A stretch of 64,000 nt of DNA from Amoebophrya sp. A120 (GCA_905178155.1 CAJINV010000002.1:4955709-5019708); one strand, 5' to 3'; numbered from the stretch's first letter, positions 5,815-52,534 are shown. Program-made: numbers and translations. The notes: generated by a model from the sequence alone, not told the origin.

Positions 5815-5949
5815 TTTTTCTTGTACACTGAGATGTACGCTGAGATGAATCGTCGATTTCAATCTTGATTGAGATTGACATGCTCACACTTGTCCTTAAT
5901 AAAATTCGGATGTCATGGGAAGAAGTCGAAGTGAACGTGAGACTTGAAT

Positions 5950-28115: not shown

Positions 28116-31100
28116 CTACTCCTCCCCTCGGGGCGCTAGAAACTGCAACTTGTCCGATTTCTCCTCCGGTAGATTGAACAAACGGCTCCAAAAACTTCTC
28201 TTTTTTGTTCCCCCGGTCGAGGCTCCCGTAGAAGTACCCGATGCGGAAGAACCCACTACAGTGTCCTCCCCAAGGACCTCCTCCCGGGCTGCCGCCGCTG
28301 TTGCCGCGTGGTTCGCCATTTCCGCGACTGCGGCCAAAATCTCTGTGGTCGTGGAGGTCACAGTCGACAGCAAATCCGTCCCGCCCAAAACCGCCCCCAC
28401 GCCCGCCGCCACCTGTTGCACAAACGAGGAGTCCGGCACCTCCACCGCGTCGGCCCCCGGCTCGCCGCAGCAGCCCGGCTGCACGGAGGCCGTCGTGTAT
28501 CCTGAGGAAAAACGTCCCCACCCCATAGTCAAGTTCTTGTGAACTCTGCAACACAAATCTAGGAGTTTTGGAAGCCATGCATGACAAGTTCGTCTTTGTA
28601 GTGTAGTGCAGGTTAGGAAGGACTCATCTCCTCATCCTGTTTACAGGATTACAATTGCCAAAACACGATTGGAAATGCCTCTGATGTAGATGCGCATTAC
28701 AAACGTTCCTGTCATTGCAAATCTGCATGACAACTCTGGGGTGGGGACGTTTTTACACAGGATATCGTGCCGTCCGCGTTCAGGTTGGGCGCCGTGCGAA
28801 ACAGTACGAAGTAGTCGCGCACCGACCACCGGTCGTTGTAGACATAGCGCAGATTTTGGTCCCGGCAATAGTCCCGCAGCCCGAAGATAAACTCCCGGTG
28901 CCAACTCGCGTTTCGGTATCCGTCCACAGGCGCGGAATCCGCCAACAGATTGGGCAGCATGACCGCGACCACCGAGAAGGATAAAACCGCCGTGATCACC
29001 GTGAACATCATCTCGGCAGAAAACTTCACGTACCCGAGTTCCGCATCCCGGGCCCGCTTGTTGAAGTATAGCCGACACATCTCCACCTCGGTCCGCTGGT
29101 CGCGCGTGATGCAGGTCACGTAAATGAAGTTGTCAAACTGGGCCAAAATCACGAAAAACGCCGCGTTGAACAAAACATCAGCGTGTGTGGTGCCGATGTA
29201 GTACTGCAAGCCGACGAACACCGTGAAGAGCGCGATGAAAAAGGAGGGCAGAATGATCGGGATATCAAATGTAAAAATGTCTGGGTCTGGAAGATTAGAA
29301 CTTGTCATGCAAAATCTGAATGATGCAAAAATCTGTGTTGCGTGAGTGCCAAAAGCTGTCCGCTTCTGAACAAGTTGAGAGGGAGTCTCTTATGCAGGAA
29401 AGGCATGATAGAGACCTCAAAGAATCTGTGATGCTGGGCCTCGCATTCCAGACCTCATGGGTCATGGAAAACCTGCATCACAAGTCTTGCATTCTTCCAG
29501 ACCCAGACATTTTTACAATCCATACGGGAGCGCGTAGAACAATTTGGCCCACAACGGCGCGCCAATGATCACCAGCTCCGGCTCGATCTCGAAAAAATCG
29601 TCCAGCATGTGGTCGAATCAAATGCAAAAATGTCTGGGTCTGGAAGAATGCAAGTTTGTCATGCTTGTCTGGCATGGCTAGAGAATCTGTGTTGCATAGG
29701 CACGAAAAGGCCCTCTTACCTGTCATGCAAAAACGCAGTTTGCCATGCGGAATACGTACGACATGACAGCCAAAAACTTTGTCATGCATAGCTGCGTATT
29801 ACAGTGCGTCTATCATTCACTTTTAGCATTACAAGTTTCCAGACCCAGACACATTTGCAATGCATAGGTCTCGCACTTCCGGCGCGTCCGCGGAATTCGA
29901 CAGCCGTCCGTCGGTCCGGATGGATTCGAGCTGCAAGGCGTTGAAGTGCGCTAATTCCTTCTTCACCACCACCCCCACCGCCTCCTTGCAGTCCGGCGTG
30001 GCCGGCGCGACAAACAGCAGCCAGTAGAGCAACCGCAACCGGTCCGCCAGCTCGCGCGAGACCGCAATGAGGTGCAAAAAGATCAGCGACGCGAGCATGA
30101 TATCAAATGCAAATATGTCTGGGTCTGGAAACTTGTAATGCTGCGTTGGGAATAGTGAATGCTCTGTAATGCCCAGCCAAGCATGAGAAATATTTGCGCT
30201 TCGTTGTGTTGCGTTTTTCGCATGACAACCTGCGTTTTTGCATGACAGACAAAAGGGTCTCTTCTTGGACACGCATCACAAACTTTTTGGTCATCCCAGA
30301 CAAGCATGACAATTCTCGCAATCTTCCACACCCAGACATTTTTGCATTTGATACATGAAGGGCGAACTGATACTCCAGTCGCAAATCTTGTCCGCGTCCT
30401 CCTTCTCCAGAACCTTCAGGTAGGTCGTGATCTCCTCGGTGCGCACCTTCGCGTCATTATGCAGATCCGCCCCGCCCGGGAGCTGTGCGAAATTCGTCCC
30501 GGCCTTGTCATCCAAGGCCGCCCCGAGTTGCATGGAGACGAGCTTGTGGTAGCCGTCCTGCCACTTCCGCACCGCGGGGCCGGACAAGTCGTACTGAATG
30601 TACTCGATCACCACGAACTGCACCAAATACCCCAGAGCCATCACGAAGAAAGACCACCCGGGCTTCATGTACAGCAACGTTTTGTAGCCCGAGGTGCACT
30701 CCACGTTCGCGAACGCGTACAAGGTTTCAATGAACGCCGCGGACTGGATATCAGAATGAAAAATCCCCCCTCCCCATATCGAAAAGGTATGCTTCCGAAA
30801 ATTTGCGTTGCTGATTTGAGGTCGCAAATCACATTTGTATTGCAAGAAGACAAGGGCAGAAGCTTCTGCCCCACTATGGAAGCGATTTGTCATGCTGTTG
30901 GCCCTAAATGTGACCTGTTTGCCATGCTGAGCAACTAGACCCATACGCCCCTCTACCTAGCCTGGGGATCTGGCTGCGGTGCCTTTCTGCAATACAGAGC
31001 TGATTTGTTTGCCCAAATTCAGCATCAGAAATTTCGTTTTGATATGGGGAGGGGGGATTTTTCCTTGCAATACTGGATCCCCTCGTAGATCGGTTCGTAC

Positions 31101-31786
31101 TTCGGCATCCGTTTTTCGGCGTTCTCGGTCCCAATGTACGCCTGCAAGGCCCGGGCGCGGTCCTGGTCCAGCAGTGTGTCCTGCTCTTTCTCGAGTGCCG
31201 CGATGGGGAGCAGATCCTCGTCGTCCGACACGTAATCCGACTTCATGATCTTGGTGGTGTTTTGCGCCTCCTTCTGCATCCGGTTGCCGCTGGCGCTCGC
31301 CTTCAGATTCGAGGAATTCTGCCGCACACCCTGATGCTTGTACTCCTGCGCCGCCGCTTGCAGCAGGGCCACGCCGCGCATCCGGGCGGCGTTCTGGTTC
31401 GTGTCGCCCGGCTTCTTGTTGGGCCTTTTCCCCGCCCCGATCCTCACATTACTGGCTGGTGTCATTCGCTGCTGCAGCGACGTCGAATCACGCTGCTGTT
31501 CGCGAGTCAACAACGTATTGGAGGCACTGCTGGAGGCGGGAGCGATTGTCGTACCGGAAACCAAGTCTCCCCCACCTGCCGTACTCTCTAACGCGTCGCC
31601 CTCTGGGACTCTTCTGCCGGAGAGGAGGAGCAGACCTTTGTTCTGGCTCCGATAATTGTTCTGTGGAGTTGTATTAGATGACCTGGCGGTGAAAACTGCA
31701 GCGCCGAGGTTGTTTTCCATCACCTCGCTCGACTCCTCGGAGGTCTCATTTGCAATTTCCGCCGCCTTGCGCATTCTCTCAAACAT
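28116..31786 (-). CDS. Hypothetical multipass membrane protein interrupted by 5 introners
   Basis: Six segments join in frame (EGIQ-SAAF, SPFM-LASL, VRD-HML, YAL-PII, DGT-TAS); several hydrophobic helices. Confidence 0.75.
28498..28764. mobile_element. TIR introner, family B
   Basis: TATCCTGAGGAAAAACGTCCCCACCCC...GGGGTGGGGACGTTTTTACACAGGATA; TSD tcgtg/tcgtg. Confidence 0.92.
29263..29524. mobile_element. TIR introner, family A (262 bp; inverted relative to 48305-48566)
   Basis: Family A TIRs; TSD cggga/cggga. Confidence 0.92.
29616..29866. mobile_element. TIR introner, family A
   Basis: Family A TIRs (left end is AAT rather than TAT); TSD ggtcg/ggtct. Confidence 0.88.
30101..30353. mobile_element. 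TIR introner, family A
   Basis: Family A TIRs; TSD catga/catga. Confidence 0.92.
30749..31072. mobile_element. TIR introner, family C
   Basis: TATCAGAATGAAAAATCCCCCCTCCCCATATC...GATATGGGGAGGGGGGATTTTTCCTTGCAATA; TSD ctgga/ctgga. Confidence 0.9.
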
Positions 31787-32764
31787 TTACTCTAACAATA
31801 ACCTGCATTCATCTTCGCCTTCTTGTGGATGTGGGTCTGTTTCTGTTACAACGAAAATGAACTAAGTAATTTTTTCCGGGTGGGTAGTTCTTGTACTATA
31901 TGGTTCTAGATCAAAAAGGAGCTCGGAAAAAGTGCTACAGCAGAAACTAGTGAGTCAACGTAGAAGTTGTGGACCACCTTGGAAGTAGGGTGCTAGCCTC
32001 GTCAAAAGACCTGCTTGCTTGATTTTCAGTGTTCTGCTCGCATTCTTTCTAAGTTGCAGGTTCACGAAATAACAAAACACGACTTTAGATGAACCAGAAG
32101 TAGCTGAAGACGCAACCAAGAACGCTTGTGATCATAGATCGTACTGGACGAAGCAACAAGCGAAGTTGAACGACAAGTTTCAGCGATTCTTGCGACCAAG
32201 CGCCTGGAGCTTTTTGCACGATGAAAAGTTTGAACGACTTCGTTGATCACGAGTTTTGAACGGTGTCAGTACGAGGCACTGCAAATTATCGGCAGTAAGG
32301 AAGAGCCGGTGAACGAACCGAATCGTAGCTTTTTCTGTTTCAAGAACGGCAGTGTCTAGCAGTTCAGCGCTTTTAACTTTTTTTGGTGAACGAAAATGCG
32401 CGAGCAATAAATTCCATATCCAGGTGGACGAAAACGCAATTCTTCATAGGTAATTCTGCACATCGAGCATCATCGATTCCAAACGAACGAACAGCTTTCT
32501 TCCGAGCTTTGACAGGACAGAAAAACGTAAAAAAACGAGGCGCATGCGCTAGCTCGCAACTTGTAATATTTTTCATGGTCTCACCCCGAGTGGTCTGTCA
32601 GGAGCAGCTTTCCTGTGCATCGGTGCAGCACAACCACCATCGTGCTTGTTTTTCTAGTTTCCACATTCATCATCCAAAACAGTAGTGTACAAGCATAATT
32701 CATCTCCCTGTCATCAGAGTACATGCCTCAACATTCCAAACCTGGTACATATGAAACGAAATTT

Positions 32765-34657
32765 TCACTTCAGCAGCGCCAATTTCCAGTCCGTGGGCCT
32801 TTTTTCGCACGTCTGCCCGTTGTGTAATTTCACCCTGACGGTCTTCCCTTTTTTGTTGTCATGCTTTTCCACGAGAGGCTGCCACACCCCGTAGCCCGGG
32901 CGAGACTTTATCACAGAGTCCTCCTGCTGAAGGAGATCTTCGTTCCTCAGAGCAGCTGGTCTATTTTCTACTCGCTGTCGCTCTGCACTAGGAAGAGATC
33001 CATGAAGGAGCCTCGAAGAAGAAGGTGCAGCTGCGGGGGTCCTCTTCGGTAGGATCCAATGCGCCCCGCAACCAATCGGCGTGCGCAGACCGCGGAACCC
33101 CGCTTCCCATTCTGGAACGGTACGCCGACAGGGCTGGCAATTGTGACCGGAAAAAAGCATGACTTTTTTTATTTAAAGACTCTTAGTTCTTATTTACATG
33201 GAAAAGATGTCTGTGAAATTCAACTCCTACTTGTTTTGTAGCCCCACATTTCAAAAAAAAAAAAGACGCGACGACTTCTACGAAGCAAGCACATACTTCG
33301 TAAAAAGAAAGAAGTACTTAGGCTTACGATGCGGACACCAACGATTTATCGAGAGCCGCCTTCCTTTCCCCCCCCCACTCCCACGAGTTTGATAGATGTT
33401 CCCTGTGGACGACGACCAACTTGTTCAGCGGCACGGATATTGGTACACCACAAAAGACAAAAACCATGGCTCCACGAAAGCGCTAGCAATGCGAACAACG
33501 TTGAGCCCCTTTGATGGGTGCTAACCAATCGGCAGAGCGGGATCACTATTGCAGCGAAAGTCCAGGCCGGCTCAACACGGACGTTCTACTTATCATCTCT
33601 ACTCCGAGTCCTCCTTGTCTGAAGATGCTGCTGCTGTGCTGTGTGTGTGTGTGTGTGTCGAACTAAAATTACTAATTGTTTATGTAAAATTGGTGCATTC
33701 AGAGTACTGTGCCCAACTTCAACATTTTCAGCTACTTACTCTCAGGAAGATGAATTTCTTTAGACGGTATACAACTCGCTCGGACCTGCATGATCAAAAG
33801 CAGAGAGAGCGAGAGACACTGCAAAGAAAAAAAAGCAGACTGCAGAGGTACCAAAGTAAGAGACTGCAAAAAAAAAGGCCCTACGTTTCCGTTTGGTCTG
33901 CACCGCATTGAATGCGGAGAAGTGGGAGCGCGCTTACTTAGAAGTATCCCGCAAGCGCAAGGTCACCATGAATAAGTATAGGATACGCATGTGCATCCTA
34001 GTAGAAGTACAGAGGAGTCGAGATAAGAACAAAGAAGGAAGCGAATACTTTGAACGAACAAAAAGCGAAAAAATCATGCGCCAAACGAAAAGTCAAAGAC
34101 AAAGTGCGAACCACTTGTGAGCGAGTCGGAAGTTGCAGCTGTGTTACTGCAGTCCACAGATGCAGCTTCACTCACCCCCGGAAACTCTCCTCGTGTTAGC
34201 GCAATCACAAATTGTAGCTTTGTGGTACGGAAAGAGGCGTACTCAAGTATCCAGTTCATCTTCAAAAAGAAAGCGAAAAAAGAAACTTCTTTTTCACGTA
34301 AAATTGTTTGTTTGAGCTTGGACAAGAAGGGTGAAATATTTAGTGTTTCCCTAAAGCATATAAACGAATTATAGTAATCGTGCGCGATTCTGATCTGGAC
34401 GTAGGTATGGCCAAGTATGCTGCAACAATGTCGCGTAGCAACAAACTCCTTCGACTAGATCCTCCCTGCAAGAGAAACGCCAGACCTCCGCTTTGTTGTA
34501 GTCCCCGAAGGAGCTGCTGCGACGCTGTTAACAGGAAGCAAAGTGGTATCCGCGCCAGAACAGGGCAGCCCGGACCCATGACTTTTACTGGTTTATTTCC
34601 GGCGCCAGCGCGGAGAGGTCGCCGAATGCGTGAGGAAACAAGAGGACCCGTCCACAT
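32765..34657 (-). CDS. Possible small spliced hypothetical gene; exon structure unresolved
   Basis: GC-richer patches with ORFs 34340-34657 and 32765-33160, downstream of the SL relic at 34769-34790. Confidence 0.25.
33640..33658. repeat. (GT)n microsatellite
   Basis: tgtgtgtgtgtgtgtgtgt. Confidence 0.85.
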
Positions 34658-34768
34658 CTACGGTGGAGCTGCAGAACGCATTGATTTCGGCGCAAGGAGC
34701 TCAATGGTGTCTATAATTCGTTGAAATTGCTGTGGCTCTAATTTTTTTTCGAAGAAGAAGTTTCGAAT

Positions 34769-34790
34769 CTTGAACTAAAATGGCTACAGG
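34769..34790 (-). other. Degenerate DinoSL relic
   Basis: Minus strand CCTGTAGCCATTTTAGTTCAAG versus DCCGTAGCCATTTTGGCTCAAG. Confidence 0.65.
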
Positions 34791-36216
34791 GCACCAAAAA
34801 ACGCAGGGAAGACACCAAAAAACCGAAGGTCGTACTAAAAAAACACTCACGACCAGTACAAAAACACTCATGGCATGACGTCCTTCACAACATCAATTTG
34901 TTGTTTGAAGAAAAACTACTGCTGCAAGCATAAATTGCCACCGAGACATGGACCCACAAAATCTGAACAAAATGCTGAACAATCTGAAATGCCGTAAAGT
35001 TACTTAGTACTTCAGCGACACAGGATAAAATGGCGCGCCACTTTACAAATTGGTTCTTTTTTGGGTTGTTTACGTGTGGGTGTGCAGGCATGGGTAGTGC
35101 AAATCCGACAGGTCATCGAAATCTATCACTTTGACTTTGTATGGAAAGACCTACTTCGTTTCATTCCTGTCTTTGTGTCTTTCTAAAAAATGTGGATAGT
35201 GTCATCCCATTTTATTGTTTCTCCCCTGAAGTTCGTGCAAGCCATCCTACAGTGTATGGGTAGCGCCATCTTTTCTACCAACATCAAACCTTGATAATTT
35301 CTCCTACCTGCTCCGAATAGAAATCTGCTGAGAAGCTCGATCTATGTATTGCAATATCGCTAAAGGCTTTGGTACGGAAATACACCGTTTCACGACAAAG
35401 AAAGAGCGCTGCTCGCAGCTCAAACTGAGAGGGTGCCGCCGTGGTCTCTTGCGTTTCCGCGTGAAGAGCTGAGGGCTACGATAGCGCGAGCAAAACATCC
35501 TTACTCTTGCTTTCTTTTCCTTCAAAACCATCACTGCCTTTTCTTTATCTTTAAAACTAAAAGATCTTCTATGTTACTTTCTACCTTAAGCGCCGGCGGA
35601 AGAAAGCTAGTACTTCTATGTTGATCCATCCCTGGACTAGATACACTTAGCCTCATACTTTCCTTCCCAGCAATGCCCCCTATCTGCCCTAGCCTTGGCT
35701 TTGTTCTTCACACTGATATAGGAGCGGGTCGCTATTATTTACGCATAGCATTATACATGTGACGGGTACACCCGTGTACCTATATGGTTTTCAACTCAAA
35801 ATGCTTTTGGTTTTGAAAAGCACGTCCGCTTGTAATAAAGAAAAAAAGCTCCCAAGAATATTACGCCACCTCCAACTAATACTTATGTGAAATAAGACAA
35901 GGATCTCCAAGTGTTGCTATGGTACCGTAGCCGAGTGCTTGATAGGTGATTGAAGTTTTTTCTTTATGATGTATGATGGCAAGTTCCCCCGAAATAGTTT
36001 GAAAAACCCAGTATCGTCGCAAACAGGTAAAAAAATGTTACATGAAATTTCTGAAACGCCAACCTACTGCAGGTACAGCTTGATAAAAAAAAATCGAAAC
36101 TGTAATTATATCACCGCATATAATTCCGGCGCGCCCACGACGCTTTGCGAAAAATAAACACTTCCGGTACTACTTCTAAATACTACTCGATCTTCACATG
36201 TTCGGCGTTATCACAG

Positions 36217-39200: not shown

Positions 39201-42200
39201 GCGCGCTTGTCGTCGTCCCCAGGTGGTTACCACCAACGTTTGCCGTCGCCTCAAACACTTGACCACTTTTTAGTTCCACCTCCTGTTGCTGCTCCTGGTA
39301 GAAGTTCTTGCTGTGATTAGAACCACTCCTGCCCGTTTGTTGTTGTTCCACAAGTGGTGCCAACGTCAGATCGCTCGGTGTAGAAACAGTTATAATACTG
39401 CACGCCCGCGATGTAGGACTCCTCCTGCCGGTCTGACTCAGACTCCTTTGCTGGTGCTCTTTCTCTATTGTCGCCAACGCGGAAAATTCCTTCGGCAAAA
39501 ACAACGCACTCAGACACTTCTGGCTGGCAAAGTCCTGCACATTTATCCGGCTCAACTGCTTTGCCATAAACTCAAACTGCCGGTAGAATTTGCTCTTGCT
39601 GGAGAGGACCAAAACTTCGTTGCTCACCGGGTCTTGCACGTGCAAATACCTCTTCACAACTTTTCTGGCTCGCTGGTGCTTTGTTCGCTTTTGAGGAGCA
39701 TCAGGATCATGTTGTTCATGATTCACCTCCAACACAGCATTTTCGTCACAACCCTGCTCCAGAAAAGCCCCCAATCCCGCCGAATCTAGTCCCAGCGGTA
39801 ACTTTTGGAACCCCCGGTCAACAATGTAGCAGAAAAACGCCGACAAAAGCTGAAACCAGGAAGCCTTCTGTCGTGGTCCTCGTGCGGTCTGTGTCTTGTC
39901 CGTGTCATTTATTGAAGAAGAGCAGGAAGAGGAAGGAGTACTACTCGAACTACACCTAGAAGTACCAAACAGGTTGTAGTGCTGCATCGCAAATACCGTG
40001 CCCATAATTTCCAACGCATACGGCGGAAACAAAACGAGACTTCCCTTTTGCTGCCCGCCATGTCCATGTCCCCCGCCACCTACCGCGCCAGGAGCGGGGA
40101 CCGCGGTGCCTTTGAAGGAGGTGGAACTGCAGGAGGTGTTGCAGTTCATCATCTGCTCATTACAAGTAGAACCACTGTCCACGGCCGGCCGAAAAGACGA
40201 ATTTCTCGACGACTCCTTCACGTCCGTATCTCCAGACAAGATCAGGCCGTTGCCGACACAGCCGTACCGCGCCCAGATCTTCAGCAGCAGTAAGAACTTC
40301 TTCACCCGGTGCGACTTCTCGCACACTTTCCGGATTTTCTCGGATCTCTGGACGCCAATGTCGAAGTTGATGTAGATGTAAATCGTCACCTGGTTGCGGA
40401 ACCGGCAACGCAGTCGCTTCGGGTGGGAAAACCGGAACTGCTGCACGTCAGCATAATCTTCTACTTCACACGCACTGATGCCGTCGCAGCTGCTGCGCGG
40501 ATCTGCTTCCGCCCCCGCAGCTGTTCCATTTTTACCAACTTTGCATCTCGGATTGTTCCAGAGCATTTATCCAAGAAAAAAACATTGTAGATGTAACTTT
40601 TTTGGAGGAACAGCATTACAAATTTGCCTGGCATGACAGCAAAAACCTGTCATGCGCAGATAGCACGTCGCGAAAACGACCTGTAATGGACCCTACGATG
40701 CATGCCAAGCATGACAGACGCAATCATCTTGCATGTTGCGCATCACAAATTTACATTAAAAACGTTTTTTTCTTGGATAGCATTCTGCTGCTCTGCACTG
40801 CTTCCACCGGCTGCAGAACGCACACGTCGGAAATCAGCATCTCCGGTGCAGCTTTTGCATACAACCCTCCTGCGGCCGCGCTGTGGTAGTTGTAACCACT
40901 GAAACTGCCACTGCGATTGTGTCGGCTTTGCAGTTCTCTCTCCACCCGCCGGCGCTCCTTGATCAGTTGCCGCATAATGTCCGCAAACCCGCTGTCAATC
41001 GTCTCCTCGCCTTTTTTCAACGAGAAATTCAGGTCGAAAGTCGAGGTAGTGGTGTCAGAGGAATTCGAATTATTGTGTGCTGCGCTGGTCGTGGTATTCG
41101 TATTATAAAGGCTGTCAGACGATTCTTGTTGTACTCCTGGAATTATGTAGTTGTGCGTTTGCTGCAGAGCTGAAAGCAGAACCTCCACCCCGGGGACAGC
41201 AGCAGTAGACGCTGCTGTTAATTGATGTTCCACCACAGCCGACGCTCGTTGGTCCGCGGTTGTCACAGAGCTTTTGCTATCAAATGTAAAAATGTCTGGG
41301 TCTGGAAGATTCTGAGACTTGTCATGCATGTTTTGCCTGGGCCATGATGTCTGTGATGCATGCCCTAGCATCATAGATTTTTTGAGGGCCTCGCGATGCC
41401 TATTCCGCATGACAAATGCCCTCTCCGCGTAGCAAAAATTACACTCCCTTTGCTGCTCATGCAATACAGATTTTTTTGGAGTCCAAACTTAGCATCACAA
41501 GTTGAATTCTTCCAGACCCAGACATTTCTACATTTGATATTTGCTGTGTGTCCTATTGAACAAAACGTTCTTCCCGCCTACGTCAAAGGACGTAACACTT
41601 GCGGAGGAAACGTTGGTACTCGTGCGGGGGCGGGCGGAACATGAAAGCTGCGGCGGCACTACCGGCGGTTTAGTATTCATTTCTCTCTTCTCGTTCTCCC
41701 CCAGCGGACGGACATCTTTTGCGGGCAAAAGAAACAGCCCGGTGCTTGCACTCCCGAAGGGCGTCGCCTTCCCGCGGTCCAGAATCCGCTCGAGGTAGCT
41801 CCTTGCCTCAAGCGCCAGGTTGGCGACGTGGATGGACTGCGGGGAGTCGGTAGCCAAGTAGGACGGTAGTAATTCCCGCTCGATCCATTTATCGAAAGCC
41901 GTCGGAGGTTCGAAGCGACAGCTTGGCTGCTCGACCGGAGGACGATCTGTGTTGGCAGGTTTGATAGGGACAACTCTCGCTTTATTTTAGGGCGCAGAAA
42001 AAATTGTCCGAGATGTATAAACCATATTCTATTTTTGCATGGGCCACTCTCCACATTGGCTCCAGTAAAATGATTGTTCTCTAGGCACTGCAGTATTAAC
42101 TCCACTCTGCGTATTGGATATCAAAGAGGTTCACTTACCGGGTAAGCCTGCCGCTTCCGCCGACGACGATGCGCCCGGGTTGCCACCAAGATCAGGGCCT

Positions 42201-45200
42201 TCTTTCGGCGTAGGGAACAACGACCCTTTGGGCTCCGAAACCACCTCCGTAGAGGGCCCTTCCTTCCCACTCTTTTGCGAGGACGCGGGGGAAGGCTGGT
42301 ACTGATCCTGCTGGTCGTTTTTGGATGCAACTACAGAAACGTCAGTACAACGACTGGTCGACGTGTCCGCGCCACGCCGTTGAGGACGGGGCGTCGTGTC
42401 CCGCCCACGCGAACGTTTTTCTTCCTTCACCGGATAAGTATGCTCAGAAATGCAACTAGTTTCATCATTTTCCACTGCACAGACTGAAATCTTCAACCGC
42501 TCTGCTCCGCAAGAAGGAGCAGCACTGGAACCGCTACTGGAACGAGAACCTTGTTCAGCCTGGAGCGTCGAGTCATCTTCTTTTTCGCCGGACCTAGCCG
42601 CGCTAGCTCCTCTCGTGTAGTTCCGCGCCCGCAGCAGTTCCTCCCGGGCGTAGGTGATACTTTTCCCGGCGGTGATCGCGGTTTTAGTGTCTGGCGAAGG
42701 ATATTCTGCAAGACCTTCTGCTCGGTCGTCCCTTTCAACATCTACTCCGACTGTACTATCAAATGCGTAGGTCTTGTCCAACGCTGATACTCCGATGTGT
42801 GAAACGTCCCACACGTCAGTGGCTTTTAGCGTAGCACCAGGCGGCGGTCCTGCAGCCGGAGGTCCTCGACTACATTCTCGTACCTCAAGATCACGATCTT
42901 CACAAGAACTCTCGTCTCCTTCTTCGCCGGCAGCTCTTGCTTCCTGGTTCACCTTCCGCCCAGTGGTCGGAGGCAAAGCTTCCGTTTTCTTGCACGACAC
43001 CGGAGTCCTCAGCACTTTGGTAGTCACGAGCTCATCGTCCTTCATCTTCGCGCGCGAAACTTCAGAAACGGCTGGCTGTGATGCTGGCGTAATAGGATCT
43101 AAATCTTCAGGATCTTCTTGTTCTCTCGTCGCACTCGCACCCGCAGCAGGACCACTTGGTATAATAATTTTTGCGATCGATTTACTGTCTTCTTCTAAAT
43201 TGAAATTGTATTGAAAGCCGTCGCAGGAACTCCCCGCGAGCGACGGCGGTTCATCTAGAAGTTGTTGGTGTTCTTCTTCGTCGCGTTTGTCTTCCGCTAC
43301 ACTAGACACTGCCGTCTGCGGGCTGCCGGTCCCGGAAACAGAAGAAGTGCCATCAAAGCAGGACCCGAAGGCAGCTGGATCATCTTGCTCTACTACCTGT
43401 TCCTCCGCTCGAAACATGAAACCTGTCGTGCACTTGCTGGGACTCCTCTCGCTCTCCGTCTCCCCGGGCGGCGGCGGCACAACTTCTTGCACGACTTGGT
43501 CATCAACATGAAGAACAGGTGGCGGTTGATGTTGTTCGTCCCCTACAGCTAACAAAGCCGTCGAGGAGGAGGCGCAACAACTCGCAGTAGAGCTGGTGCA
43601 ACCGTTGGTTTTATTTTTCTGCTGTTGGAAGGCCTGGCGCTTGGCGGCGGCGGAAAACACGATCTTTGAAGGGATTTTCGATCGCAAAACCTCTGTTCTG
43701 TGGTCCTCCTTGTTCTGCTCTCCTAGGCTCGTGGAGGAGGACATTGGGGAGCGTATGAAAGTGTCAGAATCGAAATTGACAAAATCGAAAAACTTGTGAT
43801 GCATAAAATCGATACCAGTTGGAGCCTCAGTTTCCAAGCGGCGCATGACAAATTTCGGGAGCACCCAGATCGAGTCTGTCATGCTGTTTGGGCAAAGAAG
43901 ACTGCTCCTCTCATGCTACTCTGGCAGCAGATTGCATACCCCTAAACAGGCTTACAATCGGTCTCATTTGCCTGCTCTCCAATACAGGCCCGCAGTGCCC
44001 TACATTTTATGCATCACAAATTTTTCGACTTTGTCGATTTCGATTCTGACACATCCATAGAGCAAGTAGATGAAATACTGTGGTCCACCACCAAAGGGAT
44101 AGTAAACGAGGAGGTGCCAGCTGCACCACTTCTGGGCCACTTTGCTGCTGCACCCGAAGAAGAACCTCCGCCCGGTATCCTGATTAAAAACGTCCCCACA
44201 CCAGAGTCAAGTTGGCAAATCTGCTAGACAAATCACACAGCTTTGGTTGTTTGGCATGACAAGTCTGTCCTCGTAGTGTAATCCTGTTTCGCTAGCTCCG
44301 AAGCATTACAGATCTAGCCTACCATGCTGATTCTAGCATCACAAATTCCAAAACACGAACAGAAAATGCTTCTCATAGGGCTCCGCATGAGAAACTTGTT
44401 TGGCATGCAGAGTTGCATGACAACTCTGGGATGGGTACGTTTTTACATAGGATACCCGGCGTCGTGGAGAACTGTAGCAGCCCCGGTCTACAACCAGAGG
44501 ACCCGCCTCCGCTTTTCCCGGATCTGGGCGTGTTTGAAATCATCGCCTCGCCCAACGACGCGTATCAACTGCAAAAGTGTCTGGGTCTGGAAGAATGCCA
44601 GACTTGTCATGCAGGTTTTCCAGATACCATGGCTGATGGCACTTAGGATGAAGGGGGCAGTCCTCAACCAATACACATTGGAAGAGGGGACCCCAACCCC
44701 CTGGGGGTGAAGAATCGAGGGTCATGCAGGTTTTCCATGACCCGCGAGGTCTGGCATGTAGGAAAGAGCATGACAGATTCTGTGAGAGTTCTATCGTGTC
44801 TGTCCTGCGTGAGAAACTGCCTCTCGATTAGGTCAAAAGTGGACAGCTTTTGGTAATCACGCAACACAGATTTTTTTTACATGATTCAGAATTAGCATGA
44901 CAAGTTGCTTTATTCCAGACCCAGACATTTTTGCATTTGATAACGCGCTGCTGCCGTTGATACTCGCACTGTTCAGCTCCACGTTTTGCCCCACCGCCTT
45001 CTGGTTAAACGCCGTGGTTTTGTTCTTGGCACGCAGGATTCCCAACTCCACGGTCTCCCGCTCTTTCGGCACGAAATTTTTATGCTTCGTGGTCTGGTGA
45101 CTCCACAAATAGCTCGGCTGCCGGTCGAGGAGGCTCGGAGTTCGGGCGGCGGACGACGCATTTCGATCGCTCGTAGCAGAGGAGGGGGAGGGAGTTCCCG

Positions 45201-45615
45201 GGGTCGTATATGTTGATGTCCCAACCGGACTTGCTGCTGCCGCAGCAGTAGGGGTAGTTGAAGTTTTTGGAGTTGTAGCACCTCCAAAAGCTGCGCCAGT
45301 CCCTTTCGTGTATGTTTCCCTTGTGCTGGAAATTGTGCCCCCACCCTTGCTAGGTATTTTGATTTTCAACCCATTCGTAGTTCTATCCGGGGCCGGCTTG
45401 TTGGGAATTCTTGCCAAAAAATCTAGTCGTGGGGACGCTGCTTTAGCCTTACTCTTCTCACTTTTCGGATGCGGCACTGGCACAGGGATGCTACCCACAT
45501 CGATGGCTTTAGTACAGGTTTGTTCTTTCTTCTCGTACGCCGTTCCGACGACCTCCAGGGCCGGAAGCTGTGGTGGCTGGGTACAAGGTCTGGACGCTTT
45601 TGGTGATGACACCAT
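36217..45615 (-). CDS. Very large low-complexity protein with a degenerate Cid1/Trf4-type non-canonical poly(A)/poly(U) polymerase fold; 5 introners and one GT-AG intron (42138-41947)
   Basis: PFGSASTGL; FLLLLKIWAR; PPYALEIM; QLLSAFFCY; LHVQDP in the order expected for nucleotidyltransferase plus PAP-associated domains. Confidence 0.65.
40568..40779. mobile_element. TIR introner, family F
   Basis: TATCCAAGAAAAAAAC...GTTTTTTTCTTGGATA; TSD gcatt/gcatt; joins SSRM-LWNN. Confidence 0.88.
41278..41539. mobile_element. TIR introner, family A (262 bp; near-identical to 22237-22498)
   Basis: Family A TIRs; TSD tttgc/tttgc. Confidence 0.93.
43754..44059. mobile_element. TIR introner, family G
   Basis: About 55-bp TIR TATGAAAGTGTCAGAATCGAAATTGACAAAATCGAAAAACTTGTGATGCATAAAAT; TSD gagcg/gagca; joins STCS-PMS. 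Confidence 0.88.
44176..44454. mobile_element. TIR introner, family B
   Basis: Family B TIRs; TSD cccgg/cccgg. Confidence 0.9.
44563..44942. mobile_element. TIR introner, family A, extended (380 bp)
   Basis: Family A TIRs; TSD acgcg/acgcg; internal 17-bp direct repeat around about 100 bp of extra DNA. Confidence 0.9.
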
Positions 45616-48048
45616 GACTTTCTTTTGTAAGTAAAAGTAAAGTAAGTACTTCTTTTGAAAAATATCAAAAAATAAATTGTGGCAGAAGAAGTCCTGCGTT
45701 TTAAAATGCCTTTTGCCAAAACAAACTTAGAGTCGAATGAAAGCGGAAATCAGGCGGCCGAAGCCGGAAGTAAAAAGTACCTGCCCTTGCCGGCTTTCTT
45801 TGGGTTTCTATTATTGTGCTTAGAGAAGAAAGAAATAGTACAAAAATTGCTAAGTGATTAATATGCTCTACTGAAAAAATTGCTGATACCGTTGCTCTTT
45901 TACAACATGGAACTTTTCGGAGTCACTATTTACCGGGAAAAACCTTGTGGTTCTTATGCTCATTGCAACTTGCAAAAAATAAGTGAATCGGATGATATGC
46001 GTTTAGGATTGTTGTCTGTGTCTGTGTGCAGCTACGCTGGCTTAGAAGGGACGGGTATGCTAAAAACGCTAGGGAAATCTAAATCTATTTCAATACTTCT
46101 GTCTTACATCCACGTAGCTTCCTTAACTTTTGGAATTGCAACTGAGAATATGACAAAGTTAAAAAAATCTGAAATCGGGAACTCCGAGAGTAGTGACTGA
46201 CTGCGCACCAAAAGACTTACTCTCGACACGCGTCAATCACACTACGGGAATTATATTTCCGATGTGTATCTTTAAGAATTTTTTCTGAAACAAACTTCAA
46301 TGATGTTGCGCCTTCGGATGACTCCGTAGGTCGGCGTGCCCCTGTGCTAATAGACGATACGAAGGTTTTTAAAATACGTCACAGGTCTACAAAAGACCTC
46401 GCGACCTCGAAGCAATTTTGCGGTCAACGCGAAGATATGGATATGATTTTACTTATGTCACTGGGACTGGGCTGGATTACTTTTCATGTATTCGTGTACT
46501 AAAATGCTTGCTAAACAATAGTTTTTTTCCTTCACGAGCTTGTATCATAAAACTGGTCAGCAGGAGTTAGTCTTAGTAGATGATCCTGATATACTTTTCT
46601 GCAATTGCTAAAGGAGTCGTGGCGTTTTGTGCGTTGTTGTCGGTGGTTTAGCTGGTAACAAGGTTGCTGTTCAAATACCTACGTCGTTACTTCTCTTCGG
46701 TGGTAAAATACTCGTATAGCGACACAGTTGGAGAGCTTTTTGATGTTGACAGGTACATACATAAATAGTGACCAAGTGCGGGTGCAGCGTGTAGATGATT
46801 AGTTTCAGTTTGCTTCTAGACAAAAAGTTGAGTAGACCTGTAGATGATACTGCTTTTCTTTTTCCCGAGATAACACAATACGAGTCTGCTGACAGGAGTG
46901 CACCGTCGTTCTCTTAAGAGCCATGAAGATCTTTTCCAGATTTACCGCAAAAAGTCTCGCTTTGGCTTTTGGTGCAAAATATGGAAGTCAGTGAGTAGCT
47001 CGATATTGCTTACTCTCCGGACATAAGATAGTGCACCGCTAAAGATAGCCTCCAGCGTAACAGGACGCTTTGGCTTTAGTTGCTTACTCTACCAATCTCA
47101 GTTTTGTTAAATCCCCTACTTCTCGTTGTACAGAAAATACTCACAAGGTACTAAAATATCTGCGTGAAGAAAATATCGCTGGTGGTAGTTTTTTGCTTCA
47201 CTTCTATTGATGTTTGGTTCATTCGATTCGCGCCGGCTACAATATCCCTCAGCAAAAAGTGCCAGGCAACAAGAAAGCGGCAACAACTTTGTTGCTTCAT
47301 GTTCATGATGCTGAATTAGAATGAATCAAGACCATGTGATGTGCTATGAGGCCGATAGATGGTGAGAACGCCCATGATAGCATAGATCACAACAAAAAAA
47401 TCGATCTGTATCCGACTGATCCTGGTAATATACGACCTCCGGCCGCTACTATTCGTAGCATTGCTTCAGTACGTGCTAGATAGATCTTTGATACTCATGC
47501 TAGCACTATCAGGGTGACAAATACAATTGACACTGCTTGAATCGATGAAAGTTCCGTTATGGTATCCACCAAATCGTGATCCTTGTCGTGCCAGGAGAAA
47601 AAAAGCGATCCAAGAATCACCGTGCATGCGAATCGGTAGCTGAACCTGCAGAAATTGAAATACGGGCACCATCCTCGTAAATAGGTTTCTAGAGAGATCT
47701 CAGCTAATTACGTACTTGAAGTAGCGCTTTTGAACAACGTAAGTAGAGCCTGCTTGTGCTTCTTCTTCCGAGGCTACCGAATGATGCCCGCGCACGGTTC
47801 CCGGTCTGTTTTTTTTTTCGCAAAACTACAAATCTTGAATCACAATCGTTTCACATCACTGGTTCATTTTGGTAGAGCGCCCGACAGCACACGCGCATAA
47901 CAACTCTGTCGCGCTGTCAACATGGAAACACGATCATCAAAAACCAAAACAAATAAATCTTGCTTCTCTCATAGATTACACATCCTCCTGCGACAAGTAG
48001 ACCGTGGTACTACAACTCTCCAACCAAATATTGAACCCCTGCCACCTA

Positions 48049-51000
48049 CTACCCATAATGGTCAACAACATCCTGAAAACTCGCCCGAGCATTTCGCATC
48101 AGCGCCCGGTCGATGCGATGTCGGTGGTCCGCGTTGTTTTTCAAATCTAAACCCAGCTTCTTCAACGAGGAATTTTGGTCCATCAATTCCGCAAATCTTG
48201 CCGTCACCCGACTGTTCCCCCCCGCGGACACGCCGTTGGTAGAGTGCTCGTTTCCGGACAGGTGCAGGGTTTCTAAATTCGTGTTTTCGTTTTCCATTAA
48301 CGCCTATCAAATGTAAAAATGTCTGGGTCTGGAAGAATGCAAGATTTGTGATGCAGGTTTTCCATGACCCATGAGGTCTGGAATGCGAGACCCAGCATGA
48401 CAGATTCTTTGAGGTCTCTATCATTCCTTTCCTGCATGAGAAACTCCCCTCCAACTTGGTCAAAAGCGGACAGCTTTTGGCACTCACGCAACACAGATTT
48501 TTGCATCATTTAGATTTAGCATGACAAGTTAAAATCTTCCAGACCCAGACATTTTTGCATTTGATAACGCCTCGGCGATCCGCGCGACCTGGTCTGCGTT
48601 CAGATTGTTGTTTTCCAGGTTCAGCTATCAAATGCAGAAGTGTCTGGGTCTGGAAAGTTGTGATGCTAATGCCCGAATGATGCGCAACCTGTACTACGGG
48701 GCCACGCATCACAAGTTTCTGGGCGGCTATGTCTAGCGTTAACCGCATGACAAAGCGCCTTTTTGCATGACAAACAATTGGCGCTGTAGCGCAACAAGCA
48801 TGACAGACTTTTCTGTGTTGTCGGCCACGCATAACAAACTTGCATTCTTCCAGACCCAGACATGTTTGCAGTGCATATCAGCGTTTTCAGTGTGGTATTC
48901 TCTTCCAGAAACTGGAAAAAGTAGTGCGTGGTCAAAGGAGTCGGCTCTTGTGCTGGTGTTGAAGGTCTTGCTCCTGCTGGACTAGTTGCACGACAACCCG
49001 GCGGCGGTGCTGAGGGATTTGTAGTAGGTGAACCAGCTGCATCTAGCGTTCTTTCACCCGCAATGGTATTATTGTTACATGTTGTAGTAGTTCCATCCGC
49101 AGTAGTAGTACCCTCAAAATCTTCCGTCGCGGATGTTGCAACTTCTACCGCCGCTAGCAAACTGGTTCCCAAGTCGCAGTTTTTCAGGCTCAAAGACTCC
49201 AACTCCGTGTTGGCTTTTGCCAGCGAGCAAAAAAGCTTATCCAAGAAAAGTTTCTCCTCCTCGGGAAACCGGATGTTTGATAGGTCGAGTTTCTTTAAAT
49301 TCCTATCGTTCAGACATACCCGGTGCACCACGCAAGCCAGCCAGTCGGAGGGCGGCGTCGTGGAGAGCTTTACTTTAAACTCTTGCGGTCTTACGTTCAT
49401 CATTTTGTGACGATGAGGGGTGGTGGACGATGAACTACTTCCGGACGACATTCGTGTGGGATTTAATGATGAAGCGGCCGTTTGCTGTTGAGAAAGCCTT
49501 TCCTTGTCCTTCCGTAACGACAACAGCTCCTCCTCTAATAGCCTCGGCTCCACGATGGTGCTCGCGACGCTTTCCCTGATCGACGTGTGGAGGTCTACTG
49601 ATGTTGCATGACCACTAGTAGTGCCGTCGAAGAAGTTCTTGTTGTCCACGGTCTTCCGGCTGCTCGACGGGGGCGGGCCTCTATCGTGGTCCTGAAGATG
49701 CATCGGGGAAATTTCGCTCAGTTCGTCGTTGTCCTCACCGAGCGGAGCTGCGTCTTCCGGTTTTTTGATGATGCTGGTGGTGTTCTCCTTCTCGCGGAGT
49801 TTGTGGTTTTTCTCATGCAAAAATATCAAATTGTCATCATCCTCCTCCATCTTTTCAATCTCCTCCTGAATGTGGTCCGCGCCGAAGCAGGCTCTTTTCG
49901 TGGCCGCCACCAAGGCCGAGCGGAGCAGCTGCTCGCCCGAGTGCTGCCCGTATTGCTTTTTGGAAGTGGATGGCGCTGATGTTCGTCCTTGCGAACAAGT
50001 GGATGAAAATTTTTGCGACGCAGACGCAGAACAAGTCGAACTCCGTGATGTATAAAATTGGGCAGACGGTCGCCCTTGCAAGGACCCGCTAGTACTTGCC
50101 CCGACCGCCGATCCGTTCGTTACGTCATGCACTGGGGATGAAGAAGGACAAGTCGCGACGTCATCCGGGTGCTGAGGCCATCTGCTGCCACCAGCAGCAG
50201 AACCACTTCGGGTAGAAGAAATTTCCATCCGAAAATTGATGCGATTTCGTGCGAACGCAGGGACCGATTCTTGTTGATGTTGAATAGCGGTTATTGATGT
50301 GCCGTGAGGATGTTGTACATCGTGGCACCGCCGGTAGTCCTCGTCAAAATTGTACTCCACTGCATCGCACGGATCCACGTCTTGCTCGAAGTTTGATAAA
50401 ATTTCTAAGACAACTTCTCTCTGTACTCCTTGTGCCTGTTGTGCCGTACTAGAGGAAGAGAACCCCGACGTAACAGAAGCTGCTCCTTCCACCTCCTCGT
50501 GTACCGCCAGAAACTCGCGGCACTGCCTAGACACCGGATACAGCCGGAGTTCCCGCTTCGAAATTGGCTTTACCAAATTACAACTCCCGTCTTGGACGTG
50601 GAGAAGAGCCCTGTTCATATTCGATTTGTGAAGGAGCGCAGAACTTTTACTCCCACCTGCAGCTGCAGCCGCTTTGTTCTCGTCAATGGGCACGTTTGCT
50701 GGGTAATTGTCTTGCTGCTCAGCCAAGACGATTGTCCGCTTGTTTCGCTTCGTTGTCACGCAGGTTTCGCCCCGTTTTAGGCGGTCGAAGTAGTCTGGAT
50801 CCGAATCGGAGGACGAATCAGACGAATGATCCGCGTGGTCTGCAGCTTTTGATGTAGTGGTCCTTAATTGCCCTACGATTGCTGCATTTCCGCCCGATAG
50901 AACTTCCTCATCCGCTTCCGGTATTGGGATGGTAAGCGGCTGCCGTAGTTGTTGTTCCGGCGGCGCCGCTGCTTCGCCGTCAACCTGTACTTCTGGAACG

Positions 51001-52534
51001 ACCGTCTCACCTTCTACACTTTGAAGGGCCGCGGCGGCGGCTGTGCTCAGCGCCTGATTACAACTGGTGCCATAATTCTCCCCAAGAAGGAGCTCACTAG
51101 TCGGTGTTGTAGTCGTCGTTGAGGGCGTGGTAGCTGCTACGTGCAGGAGGGGGGGCTTTAGGTGGTCCTTCATTTCCTCTAGTTCCCTATCCTTGTCGTC
51201 GACTGTACCATGATGATCTGGGTCGTCGTGTTTCTTGTCACGCTGTTCGACGAGGACATCTTGTTCCACCACAACTTCAGGCCCGACGACGACTCTTTCT
51301 GCCTGATGCTTTGCCTTTCGTTCCTCCTGCTCTACCAACACCCGGCTCGCCACGTCTTTCTGGTTTGCTACCAGCTCGTCCACTTCTTGTTTCCAAGTCG
51401 GGAGGTCGAAGCCCCGGTCTTGCAAAAGCTGTTCGCGGACGAATCGAACCTTATGAAATGCAAATATGTCTGGGTCTGGAAGATTGCAAGACTTTGGTTG
51501 GTTGGTTGGATAGCGCCTGTCGCCGGTGCAGGTCCCGCCCTCCATCGATTGCGATCCGGAGTAGCCGGAACTTCTGGATCACGCAACTGGTCTCCATTAC
51601 TACACGCAAAAGCATTACAGGTTTTGCGCAGGCCTCCTGATATCTATCCCGCATGAGAAATTCCCTATTTGCGTAGCAAGAAATGGGAAGCTTTTGGTGT
51701 TTATGCAATACAAATTTTTGCCTATTCCAGAATTCGCATGACAAGTTCCAATCCTTCCCGACCCAGACATTTTTACACTTGATAAACCTCGTACTGATAC
51801 AAAAGTCGCTGCTTCAACCTTTCCAACTCGAGCTGGAGCGAAGTCCTCAGAGTGCTGCTGTGGCTCGTGATAGAAGGTGGCTCCGCACCATGATGAAACT
51901 CCGCGTCCAGCGCTTTTTCCACCGCCTCGCACATCCCCCGACATCCAGTCCAGCGGGAGTCGTCGTGCGACGCCTTGTCGCTCAGTGACAAGTGGTCGAG
52001 CACTGCTAAAATGTGCAGCAGCCGGTTCCGCTTAATCTTCGGCGGCGCTCCTTTCGCTGCTCCTGGTGTCCTCATGTCATCTCGTCCTGCTGCGACATCT
52101 TCGCTATTGGACGATGCATTCTTTACATCGCTCGCATCAGAATCATCGGCTGTAGTCATTAGATTTTTAGAGGAGGACGACACTCCAGTGCTAGACGAGG
52201 AAGTTGTAGATGCAAACACCGCTACTAGTTCCTTCCTCGGACGCCACTTCAGATACACTTCCAAAATGTCCCTCAGATAGCCCAAGTACTCGAGCGCAGT
52301 CGTTTCCAGCGACTGACGGCGGATGTTCTGGGTGTTGTAGCAGGTCGTGCCGAGTTTTCGGAGCACCTGGTCCAGGTCCTCCAGAATCGCGTCAAAATCT
52401 TCGGCGTTCATTTTCTCGAACTGCTGGGCGGTGGAAAATGTGTTTTTACCCTCAACAGGTACTTCGATTTTTTTTACTTTCGTCAGTGGTGCCTTGCGAG
52501 GAAGAAAAGTGCGATAGTACTCAATCAGGAACAA
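48049..52534 (-). CDS. Protein with a C-terminal tropomodulin/RNI-like leucine-rich repeat domain; 3 introners; 5' end unresolved
   Basis: LNDRNLKKLDLSN, ANTELESLSLKNCDL, rebuilt ENTTLKTLNLENNNLNADQVARIAEALMEN, NSSLKKLGL...IDRALMRN. Confidence 0.75.
48305..48566. mobile_element. TIR introner, family A (262 bp)
   Basis: Family A TIRs; TSD acgcc/acgcc. Confidence 0.93.
48626..48877. mobile_element. TIR introner, family A
   Basis: Family A TIRs; TSD tcagc/tcagc; removal rebuilds LKTL-NLENN. Confidence 0.92.
51452..51784. mobile_element. TIR introner, family A, extended (333 bp)
   Basis: Family A TIRs; TSD aacct/aacct; joins YEV-RFVR. Confidence 0.9.

Follow-up and report, generated by a model that had tools for sequence, protein, structure and literature searches.

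Introner elements of Amoebophrya sp. A120 are removed from transcripts in either orientation, probably by a polar donor and a distance-set acceptor

Amoebophrya is a marine parasite of algae. In a stretch of 64,000 nucleotides from Amoebophrya sp. A120 (GCA_905178155.1 CAJINV010000002.1:4955709-5019708; hereafter the window), copies of the same element sit in genes in both orientations relative to transcription, raising the question of how an intron can be removed whichever way it is read. By what means this organism removes its non-canonical introns, which number in the tens of thousands, is an open question according to both Farhat et al. 2021 (PMC7789003) and a 2024 review (PMC11282704). 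Both the A120 elements and, more broadly, introners that work in either direction have been described before. A120 has roughly 30,000 such elements; the introns of strain AT5 are canonical. A donor/fixed-spacer rule of the kind discussed below was not found in the open-access literature, and the figures of PMC7789003 (Fig. 3, S19-S25) may show part of it.

Reading frames of the window are 100% identical to proteins P0002 and P0003, named Amoebophrya sp. A120, and its 27 elements are the published introner elements of this organism (PMC7789003), with which they share a length near 240 nt, co-oriented host genes, direct repeats of a few nucleotides, and inverted ends that begin with TAT and carry a run of A some 10 nt further inside. 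Together with a pattern scan of a related metagenome assembly (at least 149 loci, all under one assembly prefix) the window yielded 263 copies, in which T, A and T occupy positions 1-3 in 263, 263 and 258 cases and, after about 7 variable nucleotides, a run of at least three A follows (A at end positions 11-13 in 231-252 of 263). A direct repeat of the published 3-5 nt class borders every window copy (18/27 perfect, 9/27 with one mismatch), and exact 5-mer duplications flank 280 of 369 end pairs. That they are repeated shows in an element depth of 1e4-1e5 versus 45 in the DNA run; their RNA support comes from the RNA-like contigs described below. The terminal inverted repeats (TIRs), constant-length duplication, lack of coding capacity and many dispersed copies are those of MITEs, i.e. 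non-autonomous TIR transposons. A search for an autonomous partner with the same ends recovered, in the loci examined, only two long copies (972 and 1104 nt) with no obvious transposase frame by eye; viral contigs gave 0 element matches, and Rfam 0 matches in the window.

The inversion noticed in the initial annotation is borne out: 29263-29524 is complementary to 48305-48566 at 243/262 positions (93%), and a 41-mer quoted there lies at 29443 and recurs as reverse complement at 48346. Once the outer 35 nt on either side are set aside, the interiors of this pair match at 178/192 positions when inverted versus 40/192 in the same orientation; a shuffled interior reached at most 81/192 at any place on the minus strand (maximum of 30 shuffles). 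Likewise, 62250-62511 is inverted relative to 22237 and 58908, as had been claimed (84% and 83%), and also to 41278 (85%) and 54349 (79%). Within the main family 0 of 1382 pairwise edges conflict on orientation. An alternative foreseen in the initial annotation, an internal sequence palindromic enough to carry like polar signals both ways, is half true: the interiors are polar rather than palindromic (gapped identity to their own reverse complement 0.46-0.60), but the 30-nt ends do present one and the same polar signal in either orientation. The placement of all host genes on the minus strand was also correct for the 27/27 elements, which lie in minus reading frames, and for four GT-AG introns. 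Removing element length + 5 nt opens minus-strand frames of 218-1975 codons for 26/27 elements, and the 27th (12307) comes to lie in a minus frame of 1024 codons if a GT-AG intron with RNA support is taken out as well.

The elements and three minus-strand host frames are given below. Orientation (a or b) is relative to the minus-strand transcript, and register denotes the number of nucleotides of the upstream duplication kept in the mRNA, so that at register 4 the intron starts N-U-A-U and at register 5 it starts at U.

29263..29524: introner, 262 nt, main family, orientation b; the two copies of its 5-bp duplication occupy 29258-29262 and 29525-29529; contigs X3, X4, X5 and X8 skip 267 nt here
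48305..48566: introner, 262 nt, main family, orientation a, thus inverted relative to 29263; the public gene model P0003 leaves out element + 5
62250..62511: introner, 262 nt, main family, orientation b; removal opens a 660-codon frame
22237..22498: introner, 262 nt, main family, orientation a; its two duplication copies disagree at transcript position 1, and X8, which skips 267 nt, retains the upstream base; register 4 would make it a GT..AG intron
20412..20680: introner, 269 nt, main family, orientation a; skipped as 274 nt in X8
41278..41539: introner, 262 nt, main family, orientation a; removal opens a minus frame
54349..54610: introner, 262 nt, main family, orientation a; removal opens a minus frame
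58908..59169: introner, 262 nt, main family, orientation a; removal opens a minus frame
44563..44942: introner, 380 nt, main family at a looser threshold, orientation a
51452..51784: introner, 333 nt, main family at a looser threshold, orientation a
29616..29866: introner, 251 nt, second family, orientation b; skipped as 256 nt in X3, X4, X5 and X8, although its transcript-3' terminal A is changed to T
30101..30353: introner, 253 nt, second family, orientation a, same gene as 29616; skipped as 258 nt in X3, X4 and X5
55081..55333: introner, 253 nt, second family, orientation b
48626..48877: introner, 252 nt, second family, orientation a; removed in gene model P0003
2619..2883: introner, 265 nt, second family, orientation a
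3939..4193: introner, 255 nt, second family, orientation a; duplication imperfect, with a paralog residue compatible with a register of at least 2
28498..28764: introner, 267 nt, another end family; skipped as 272 nt in X3, X4 and X5
30749..31072: introner, 324 nt, another end family; skipped as 329 nt in X3, X4 and X5
12307..12496: introner, 190 nt; imperfect duplication fixes register at 3 or more; skipped as 195 nt in X8, with a slide of only 2 nt
6847..7159: introner, 313 nt; of all registers, only 4 and 5 agree with the junction residue in P0002
7648..7958: introner, 311 nt; within a RING-finger coding stretch
3044..3302: introner, 259 nt; duplication copies disagree at the last position, and the paralog leans weakly towards a register of at most 4
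2166..2575: introner, 410 nt; duplication imperfect, with a paralog residue compatible with a register of at least 2
40568..40779: introner, 212 nt
43754..44059: introner, 306 nt
44176..44454: introner, 279 nt
59248..59397: introner, 150 nt
28119..31786: host gene; 762 codons once its five introners are taken out, among them 29263 and second-family members in both orientations
48052..52570: host reading frame; 1219 codons after taking out three introners; its 3' part is P0003
17366..23831: host reading frame; 1975 codons after taking out two introners; a MIF4G domain lies inside

Insertion is orientation-blind. The initial annotation had proposed to align the copies and score orientation against the host strand genome-wide; in the 263 copies the score is random, with family ratios of 37:45, 20:23, 12:11, 6:13, 10:4, 8:4 and 7:4, and one small family that stands at 8:0 under a strict threshold (p 0.008) merges into the 6:13 group.

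Removal from transcripts is exact in both orientations. RNA-like contigs (assembled from two samples of one study, of guessed RNA type, and speaking to presence rather than efficiency) drop 8/8 elements in 12101-32100, each as element length + 5 nt, including opposite members of the same families (29263 versus 20412 and 22237; 29616 versus 30101 within one contig). The same contigs lack four GT-AG introns, 4/4 of which read GT-AG on the minus strand. The contigs leave 45009-47676 uncovered, and 48305, 58908 and 62250 lie outside the set with RNA joints; the raw-read run X10 returned 219 reads, consisting of element ends only with no host exon.

The duplication blurs the cut positions, which is why the borders were left undefined earlier, being 'unknown' or 'variable' in PMC7789003; the passages of that paper covered here neither tally how the elements are oriented nor describe a fixed register or a 5'/3' polarity. 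Taken together, the orientations, the polarity of the ends and the imperfect duplications narrow the borders to a short rule with two candidate registers. RNA joints give registers of at least 1, at least 1 and at least 3; by the RNA contigs, then, 3 nt or more of the upstream duplication stay in the mRNA. Gene model P0002 gives a register of at least 4, and codon log-odds summed over 65 imperfect duplications peak at registers 4-5 (17.1 and 19.1; 4998/5000 bootstraps), which together indicate that 4 or 5 nt are kept. The codon statistics slightly favour register 5 over 4 (4274/5000 bootstraps), and a protein search on this choice at L078:4890-5016 retrieved only a gene call reading through the element. 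An excess of synonymous mismatches in the duplications (31/58, hand count) lay within the expectation from transitions and exon selection and was dropped, and AT/GC drift as a pointer to the intronic duplication copy gave no signal (32 versus 28).

We more tentatively favour register 4, with an intron that would start N-U-A-U and end ...AUA-NNNN without AG. At this register the invariant U described below would lie at +2 in agreement with the donor consensus, whereas an intron of register 5 would begin with the U itself, without likeness to a G-U donor. Among clean canonical donors 5/6 start GTAT or GTAC. GTAT is also the commonest start of ab initio canonical introns (39/266), but these calls were noisy and carry no weight here. 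Table S4 of PMC7789003 gives GT, CT, AT and TT as the main non-canonical starts in A120, and in A25 TT starts with ends starting TTA plus two purines; as sequence patterns, both sets of starts are compatible with N-T-A. Neither G at +1 (82/263) nor a terminal AG (26/263) rises much above background, and U2-type GT/GC-AG termini are possible at any register in only 23/263 copies on the sense strand, 9 of them at register 4, a small excess over the 12 found antisense. Of 24 copies whose duplication has decayed, 17 still have their best frame at element + 5 (p 2e-4). Where a duplication is displaced, the shift is 3 (4 cases) or 6 (1 case), never 1, 2, 4 or 5. Thus, neither a matching duplication nor GT/AG ends appear to be required.

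The initial annotation had inferred that recognition is symmetric, through a TIR RNA stem or at the DNA level. Part of this stands, in that both orientations are removed, the interior has no column conserved in one orientation only, and the signal resides in the stem-forming inverted ends. What does not stand is full symmetry, as the first T at the transcript-5' end is invariant while its 3' partner is not, and the cut is offset to one side. The transcript-5' TA is broken in 0/263 copies and the 3' TA in 13/263 (p 2.4e-4); with no filter on terminal bases (251 copies), the first T is broken in 0 at the 5' end versus 9 at the 3' end, and TA in 1 versus 13. The A residues of the 3' end are each mutable (A-1 in 9/251, A-3 in 4/251), and the third base of the 5' end varies mostly from T to C (4/5). 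End position 4 favours C at the 5' end (61 versus 34, p 0.007), which is not significant after 30 tests, and positions 3-29 show no 5'/3' difference surviving that correction. No branch point was found in a search for an orientation-specific conserved A; with a stem of about -45 kcal/mol a branch site would be hidden.

These observations are best explained, with a probability of roughly 60%, by non-autonomous inverted-repeat transposons that land in coding exons either way and are removed by means of a polar donor and a distance-set acceptor. Whichever end comes first would be read as the donor, N-U-A-Y, which either end can supply, and the acceptor cut would likely be placed at a fixed distance past the other end, not by sequence; absence from transcripts in both directions is likely due to this pairing of a start-of-intron signal carried by each end with a distance-placed second cut. 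At register 4 the donor N-U-A-U would resemble the native G-U-A-Y donors except that +1 is free, and pairing of the inverted ends into a stem would place the two cuts side by side. On the transcript strand, A-C mismatches (294) are no rarer than G-U pairs (260), which gives no sign of selection on an RNA stem. The most likely machine would be a U2/U5/U6 spliceosome whose checks at +1 and -2/-1 are relaxed; PMC7789003 reports 83/89 spliceosomal proteins and U2, U4, U5 and U6 in A120, and no U1 snRNA found. A somewhat better than even case can be made for the resulting code, which would dispense with G+1 and 3' AG: the invariant U near the stem base would be the donor and the acceptor would be measured 4-5 nt from the other arm, giving a scarless intron at any exon site in either direction through a U1-less spliceosome or another enzyme.

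Comparable introners of Polarella glacialis (classes 2, 3, 6, 7, 8 and 10) and Aureococcus anophagefferens (bioRxiv 10.1101/2020.10.14.339549) are likewise DNA transposons whose insertion in either direction creates an intron, its splice sites being built from element ends and duplication. However, they use G(T/C/A) donors and AG acceptors, and because these sites are of canonical type only some target sequences work, unlike here, where GT/GC-AG is open to so few copies and the target is unconstrained. Polarella classes 6, 8 and 10 are also biased to one orientation, while the large families here are unbiased. The non-canonical introns of Fritillaria borealis (PMC11282704) are likewise MITE-derived, with inverted ends and duplications, and are reported to be removed by a changed U2 spliceosome; their ends are mostly AG-AC or AG-AT, with a preferred exon target TAC that gives the 3' site, whereas here neither end dinucleotide is fixed.

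A possible, albeit unlikely, alternative is that the same RNA rule (5' U, fixed 3' spacer, stem) serves a dedicated non-spliceosomal nuclease-ligase, as proposed for Euglena, acting at register 5 with circle or linear release. It would account for the missing G+1, AG and branch-point signature, the lean of the codon statistics to register 5 and the U1 snRNA not found in A120 (PMC7789003). The Euglena nonconventional introns (PMC12501133; PMC11282704) also have paired inverted ends, fixed spacers, duplication-like repeats and no GT-AG, and coexist with GT-AG introns; the main text of PMC12501133 makes no mention of element orientation. However, their paired motif is CDG/CHG rather than TAT/ATA, with spacers of 3 and 5-6 nt rather than 1 and 4 (or 0 and 5), and the arrangement N3-CDG ... 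CHG-N5-6 is not found here; nor is there the Euglena requirement for a purine at the first downstream exon base (159/263 at register 4). The match of the element start to canonical donors at +2 to +4 in 5/6 clean introns, and a published A25 pattern (PMC7789003) that shifts in step with that start, also speak against such an enzyme.

Recognition of the RNA stem alone, symmetric and with no polar sequence signal, is improbable. The inverted ends do fold into a long stem in either orientation (z -6.9 and -7.2), consistent with the random orientation and the likeness of the two ends at positions 3-29; but protection of the terminal T is confined to the transcript-5' end, 29616 is removed though its 3' terminal pair is broken, and 29263 is removed exactly even though its outermost bases stay unpaired in the lowest-energy fold.

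Reverse transcriptase is known to jump at strong hairpins that carry a repeat. All clean copies combine a 5-bp repeat with such a hairpin, and the join might be guided by the direct repeat itself, through repeat-mediated splicing or template switching across the stem during reverse transcription, which would let any orientation work. This is very improbable, since frames that open only after removal (26/27) and stops in all three frames in 225/263 copies call for real removal, repeats decay to 0-2/5 with the 5-nt rule apparently kept, and the polarity of the T is a mark of selection in DNA.

Finally, excision from DNA before transcription, as with ciliate internal eliminated sequences and as the DNA-level option of the initial annotation would have it, deserves hardly any credence despite the orientation-blind, TA-bounded and exact removal, because bulk DNA contigs run into element ends, 8/8 DNA-run pieces among the matches listed continuing 24-52 nt into them at single-copy depth (38-54), none of the 15 DNA joints listed (809 more lie beyond them) is an empty site (though the DNA and RNA runs are different samples, so that stage-specific or rare empty sites are possible), contigs without elements also lack GT-AG introns, and end conservation follows the transcript strand.

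If the rule of a polar donor and a distance-set acceptor holds, any exon site would be open to invasion by these elements, since no target would be needed to supply GT or AG. Amoebophrya would then offer a natural case of splicing without terminal-dinucleotide checks, and its introners might provide a design rule for sequence-independent synthetic introns.

The 262-nt introner at 29263-29524 recurs inverted at 48305-48566, as the initial annotation had proposed, with 243 of 262 bases matching as reverse complement; over the interior, 178 of 192 positions match when inverted versus 40 of 192 in the same orientation. The inversion of 62250-62511 relative to the elements starting at 22237 and 58908 was borne out and extends to those at 41278 and 54349 (79-85%). 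The interiors are polar and not palindromic, contrary to an alternative considered there. The 27 window elements of 150-410 nt, picked by eye from a candidate list with nested and cross-element pairings left out, together occupy 11.5% of the window. They form several families with inverted ends of about 30 nt and start with TAT and end with ATA (29616 being the sole exception). A 5-bp direct repeat borders each of them, perfect in 18 and with one mismatch in 9. Since A120 introners are characterised in excerpts of Farhat et al. 2021 (PMC7789003) by inverted repeats that begin with TAT and by direct repeats of 3-5 nt, the window elements are already known; their intron borders are there termed variable or unknown.

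Deletion of each element plus 5 nt yields long minus-strand frames over 26 of the 27, and the 27th (12307) joins minus-strand frames once a canonical intron is also deleted, in keeping with the original assignment of all host genes to the minus strand. Proteins named Amoebophrya sp. A120 match two of the window frames at 100% identity; for a third frame there is a likewise named paralog at 86% (public protein P0001). The features of these genes are as follows:

1-5883, minus strand, large gene with four introners, 86% paralog P0001 and D-x-N/D-x-D-G repeats
14340-14447, three 36-nt tandem repeats inside a minus-strand frame
48052-52570, minus strand, frame of 1219 open codons after deletion of 51452; the start of P0003, a public gene model, lies at 50618
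53494-54342, PF02666 domain (phosphatidylserine decarboxylase); its gene carries introners 54349 and 55081

The repeats of the first gene presumably resemble EF-hands. Judging from the open frame, P0003 may lack part of its 5' end.

A pattern scan of metagenome contigs recovered at least 149 loci from a single related assembly, with 323 distinct elements among the loci listed; 22 window elements are matched there over nearly their full length, with best interior identities of 67-96%. Host strand was assigned confidently to 236 of the 323 by a codon model fitted to window sequence, 87 being left out; calls were concordant at 57 of 57 loci having two or more. The comparison of orientation with host strand suggested initially was run on 263 copies, namely the 27 from the window and these 236 from the loci listed. 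The large families showed no bias (37:45, 20:23, 12:11), and the smaller ones split 6:13, 10:4, 8:4, 7:4, 3:3, 5:1 and 4:1. Orientation assignments within families contained no inconsistent edges; one 8-member group was 8:0 at a stricter threshold. Among the metagenome copies, L066:2858-3137 is flanked by an exact duplication of 8 bp (5 + 3) in place of the usual 5, and L018:505-1608 (1104 nt) and L072:5014-5985 (972 nt) are long copies with intact ends and 5-bp duplications, in which no obvious transposase frame was seen by eye. The 127-nt element at L078:4890-5016 is in frame and stop-free, and the automatic gene call P0004 reads through it; among the 263 copies, just one combines a length divisible by 3 with the absence of stops in every frame.

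RNA-like contigs placed on 12101-32100 derive from two samples of one study, the first represented by runs X3, X4 and X5 and the other by X8; these were typed as RNA by guess, which is supported because GT-AG introns are also missing from the same contig, and they speak to presence, not efficiency. Eight of their 12 joints skip an element and four skip minus-strand GT-AG introns. Each element joint removes the element length plus 5 nt, and all eight elements in this interval are covered. The skipped elements include opposite orientations (29263 versus 20412 and 22237), and the opposed 29616 and 30101 are both removed within one 5776-nt contig. Where one orientation might have stayed unexcised in cDNA, both are absent from these contigs. 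The element at 48305 is without an RNA joint and is deleted together with 48626 in P0003, also as element plus 5 nt; for 58908 and 62250 it is frame restoration that argues for removal. Ungapped contigs of about 5776 nt over 24351-32035 (one in X3, one in X5) span two adjoining minus-strand genes plus 1.4 kb of intervening sequence (about 26660-28120), which may represent read-through or overlapping untranslated ends, between which a contig cannot discriminate. At 29261-29347, about 200 raw RNA reads of run X10 carry an 87-nt piece of the element end between unrelated flanks, with nil cover of the host exon; this is a shortened copy retained in a transcript of that sample.

A perfect duplication lets the junction slide over six registers, described by k, the number of bases of the upstream duplication copy kept in the mRNA. 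RNA joints at imperfect duplications give k of at least 1 (22237, 29616) or 3 (12307), gene model P0002 gives at least 4 at 6847, and the paralog sets a minimum of 2 for both 2166 and 3939 and a weak maximum of 4 for 3044. Codon log-odds summed over 65 imperfect duplications are 0, -0.3, 5.8, 7.3, 17.1 and 19.1 for k = 0-5, with k = 5 preferred in 4274 and k = 4 in 724 of 5000 bootstraps. These limits and log-odds together narrow k to 4 or 5. With k = 4, introns start N-T-A-T, and as the six clean canonical A120 donors are mostly GTAT (three) or GTAC (two; one is GTGA), the invariant T of the element would be the +2 U. The main A120 intron starts listed in Table S4, among the excerpts of PMC7789003, are all N-T and fit k = 4, as do the TT starts of A25, in which the element ends begin TTA plus two purines; the aligner's choice among equal registers is a caveat here. 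Neither G at +1 (82/263) nor AG at the end (26/263) exceeds flank composition, and GT/GC-AG is readable at any register in only 23/263, versus 12 on the antisense control.

In the favoured model, a putative integrase-like or other transposase would insert the element in either direction and thereby duplicate 5 bp of target; the accessible part of PMC12130899 notes Copia/Gypsy-like frames in TIR elements of A120. Whichever end comes first in the pre-mRNA would serve as donor N-U-A-Y, the acceptor would be measured 4 nt beyond the second end, and a spliceosome without G+1 or AG checking would carry out removal. The probability of this model as a whole is put at about 0.6. Its main rival, doubtful by comparison, keeps the same geometry and would invoke a dedicated enzyme by analogy with the one proposed for Euglena; there, according to the accessible text of PMC12501133, knock-ins revealed fixed spacers around a paired motif.

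The ends themselves are conserved in a polar manner: TA is intact at the transcript-5' end in 263/263, against 13 copies in which it is broken at the 3' end (p = 2.4e-4). A second search with free terminal bases and an end library derived from the first set gave 251 confident copies, with the first T broken at 0 5' versus 9 3' ends and TA at 1 versus 13. Other end positions showed no 5'/3' difference after correction, and the four largest families no interior column conserved in one orientation only. Given that a transposase or DNA-level excision would be expected to treat both ends alike relative to transcription, this points to a polar RNA signal present twice, one per end. The symmetric recognition initially envisaged thus stands in that both orientations are removed, but not for the first T/TA, protected at the transcript-5' end and broken at some 3' ends. 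Symmetry through a stem alone is unlikely. Folding predicts long terminal stems for both orientations, but on the transcript strand G-U pairs are no commoner than A-C mismatches (260 vs 294), so that the stem may plausibly have a role in removal. Excision of DNA, the other option raised, is unlikely too: in the DNA run X1, every one of the 8 single-copy pieces listed (depth 38-54; 15 of 824 joints were listed) extends into an element end by 24-52 nt, and this speaks against removal from bulk DNA.

Guidance of the 3' cut by the repeat, or an artefact, is also unlikely. Although 280 of 369 end pairs have an exact 5-bp repeat and 58 one mismatch, 31 have neither. Of the latter, 24 were scored (7 mispaired, misdefined or strandless pairs were left out), and for 17, among them copies that match at 0-2 of 5 positions, deletion of element plus 5 scores highest for coding (p = 2e-4 against one third). 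Where the repeat is displaced, the shift is 3 nt in four cases (one being an 8-bp duplication) and 6 nt in one, never 1, 2, 4 or 5. To judge from frames, not RNA, these copies would agree with a fixed spacer and not with repeat guidance.

In Polarella and Aureococcus, either-orientation introners draw canonical-type sites from ends plus duplication (accessible part of bioRxiv 10.1101/2020.10.14.339549), and the search described in excerpts of PMC9860276 allowed for opposite-orientation copies. Excerpts of PMC11282704, PMC11453091 and PMC12787238 hold nothing on orientation or register of Amoebophrya elements, and orientation count, end polarity or register was not found stated in the open-access papers searched. 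The Amoebophrya elements are real and known; the rule proposed for their splicing is new and testable.
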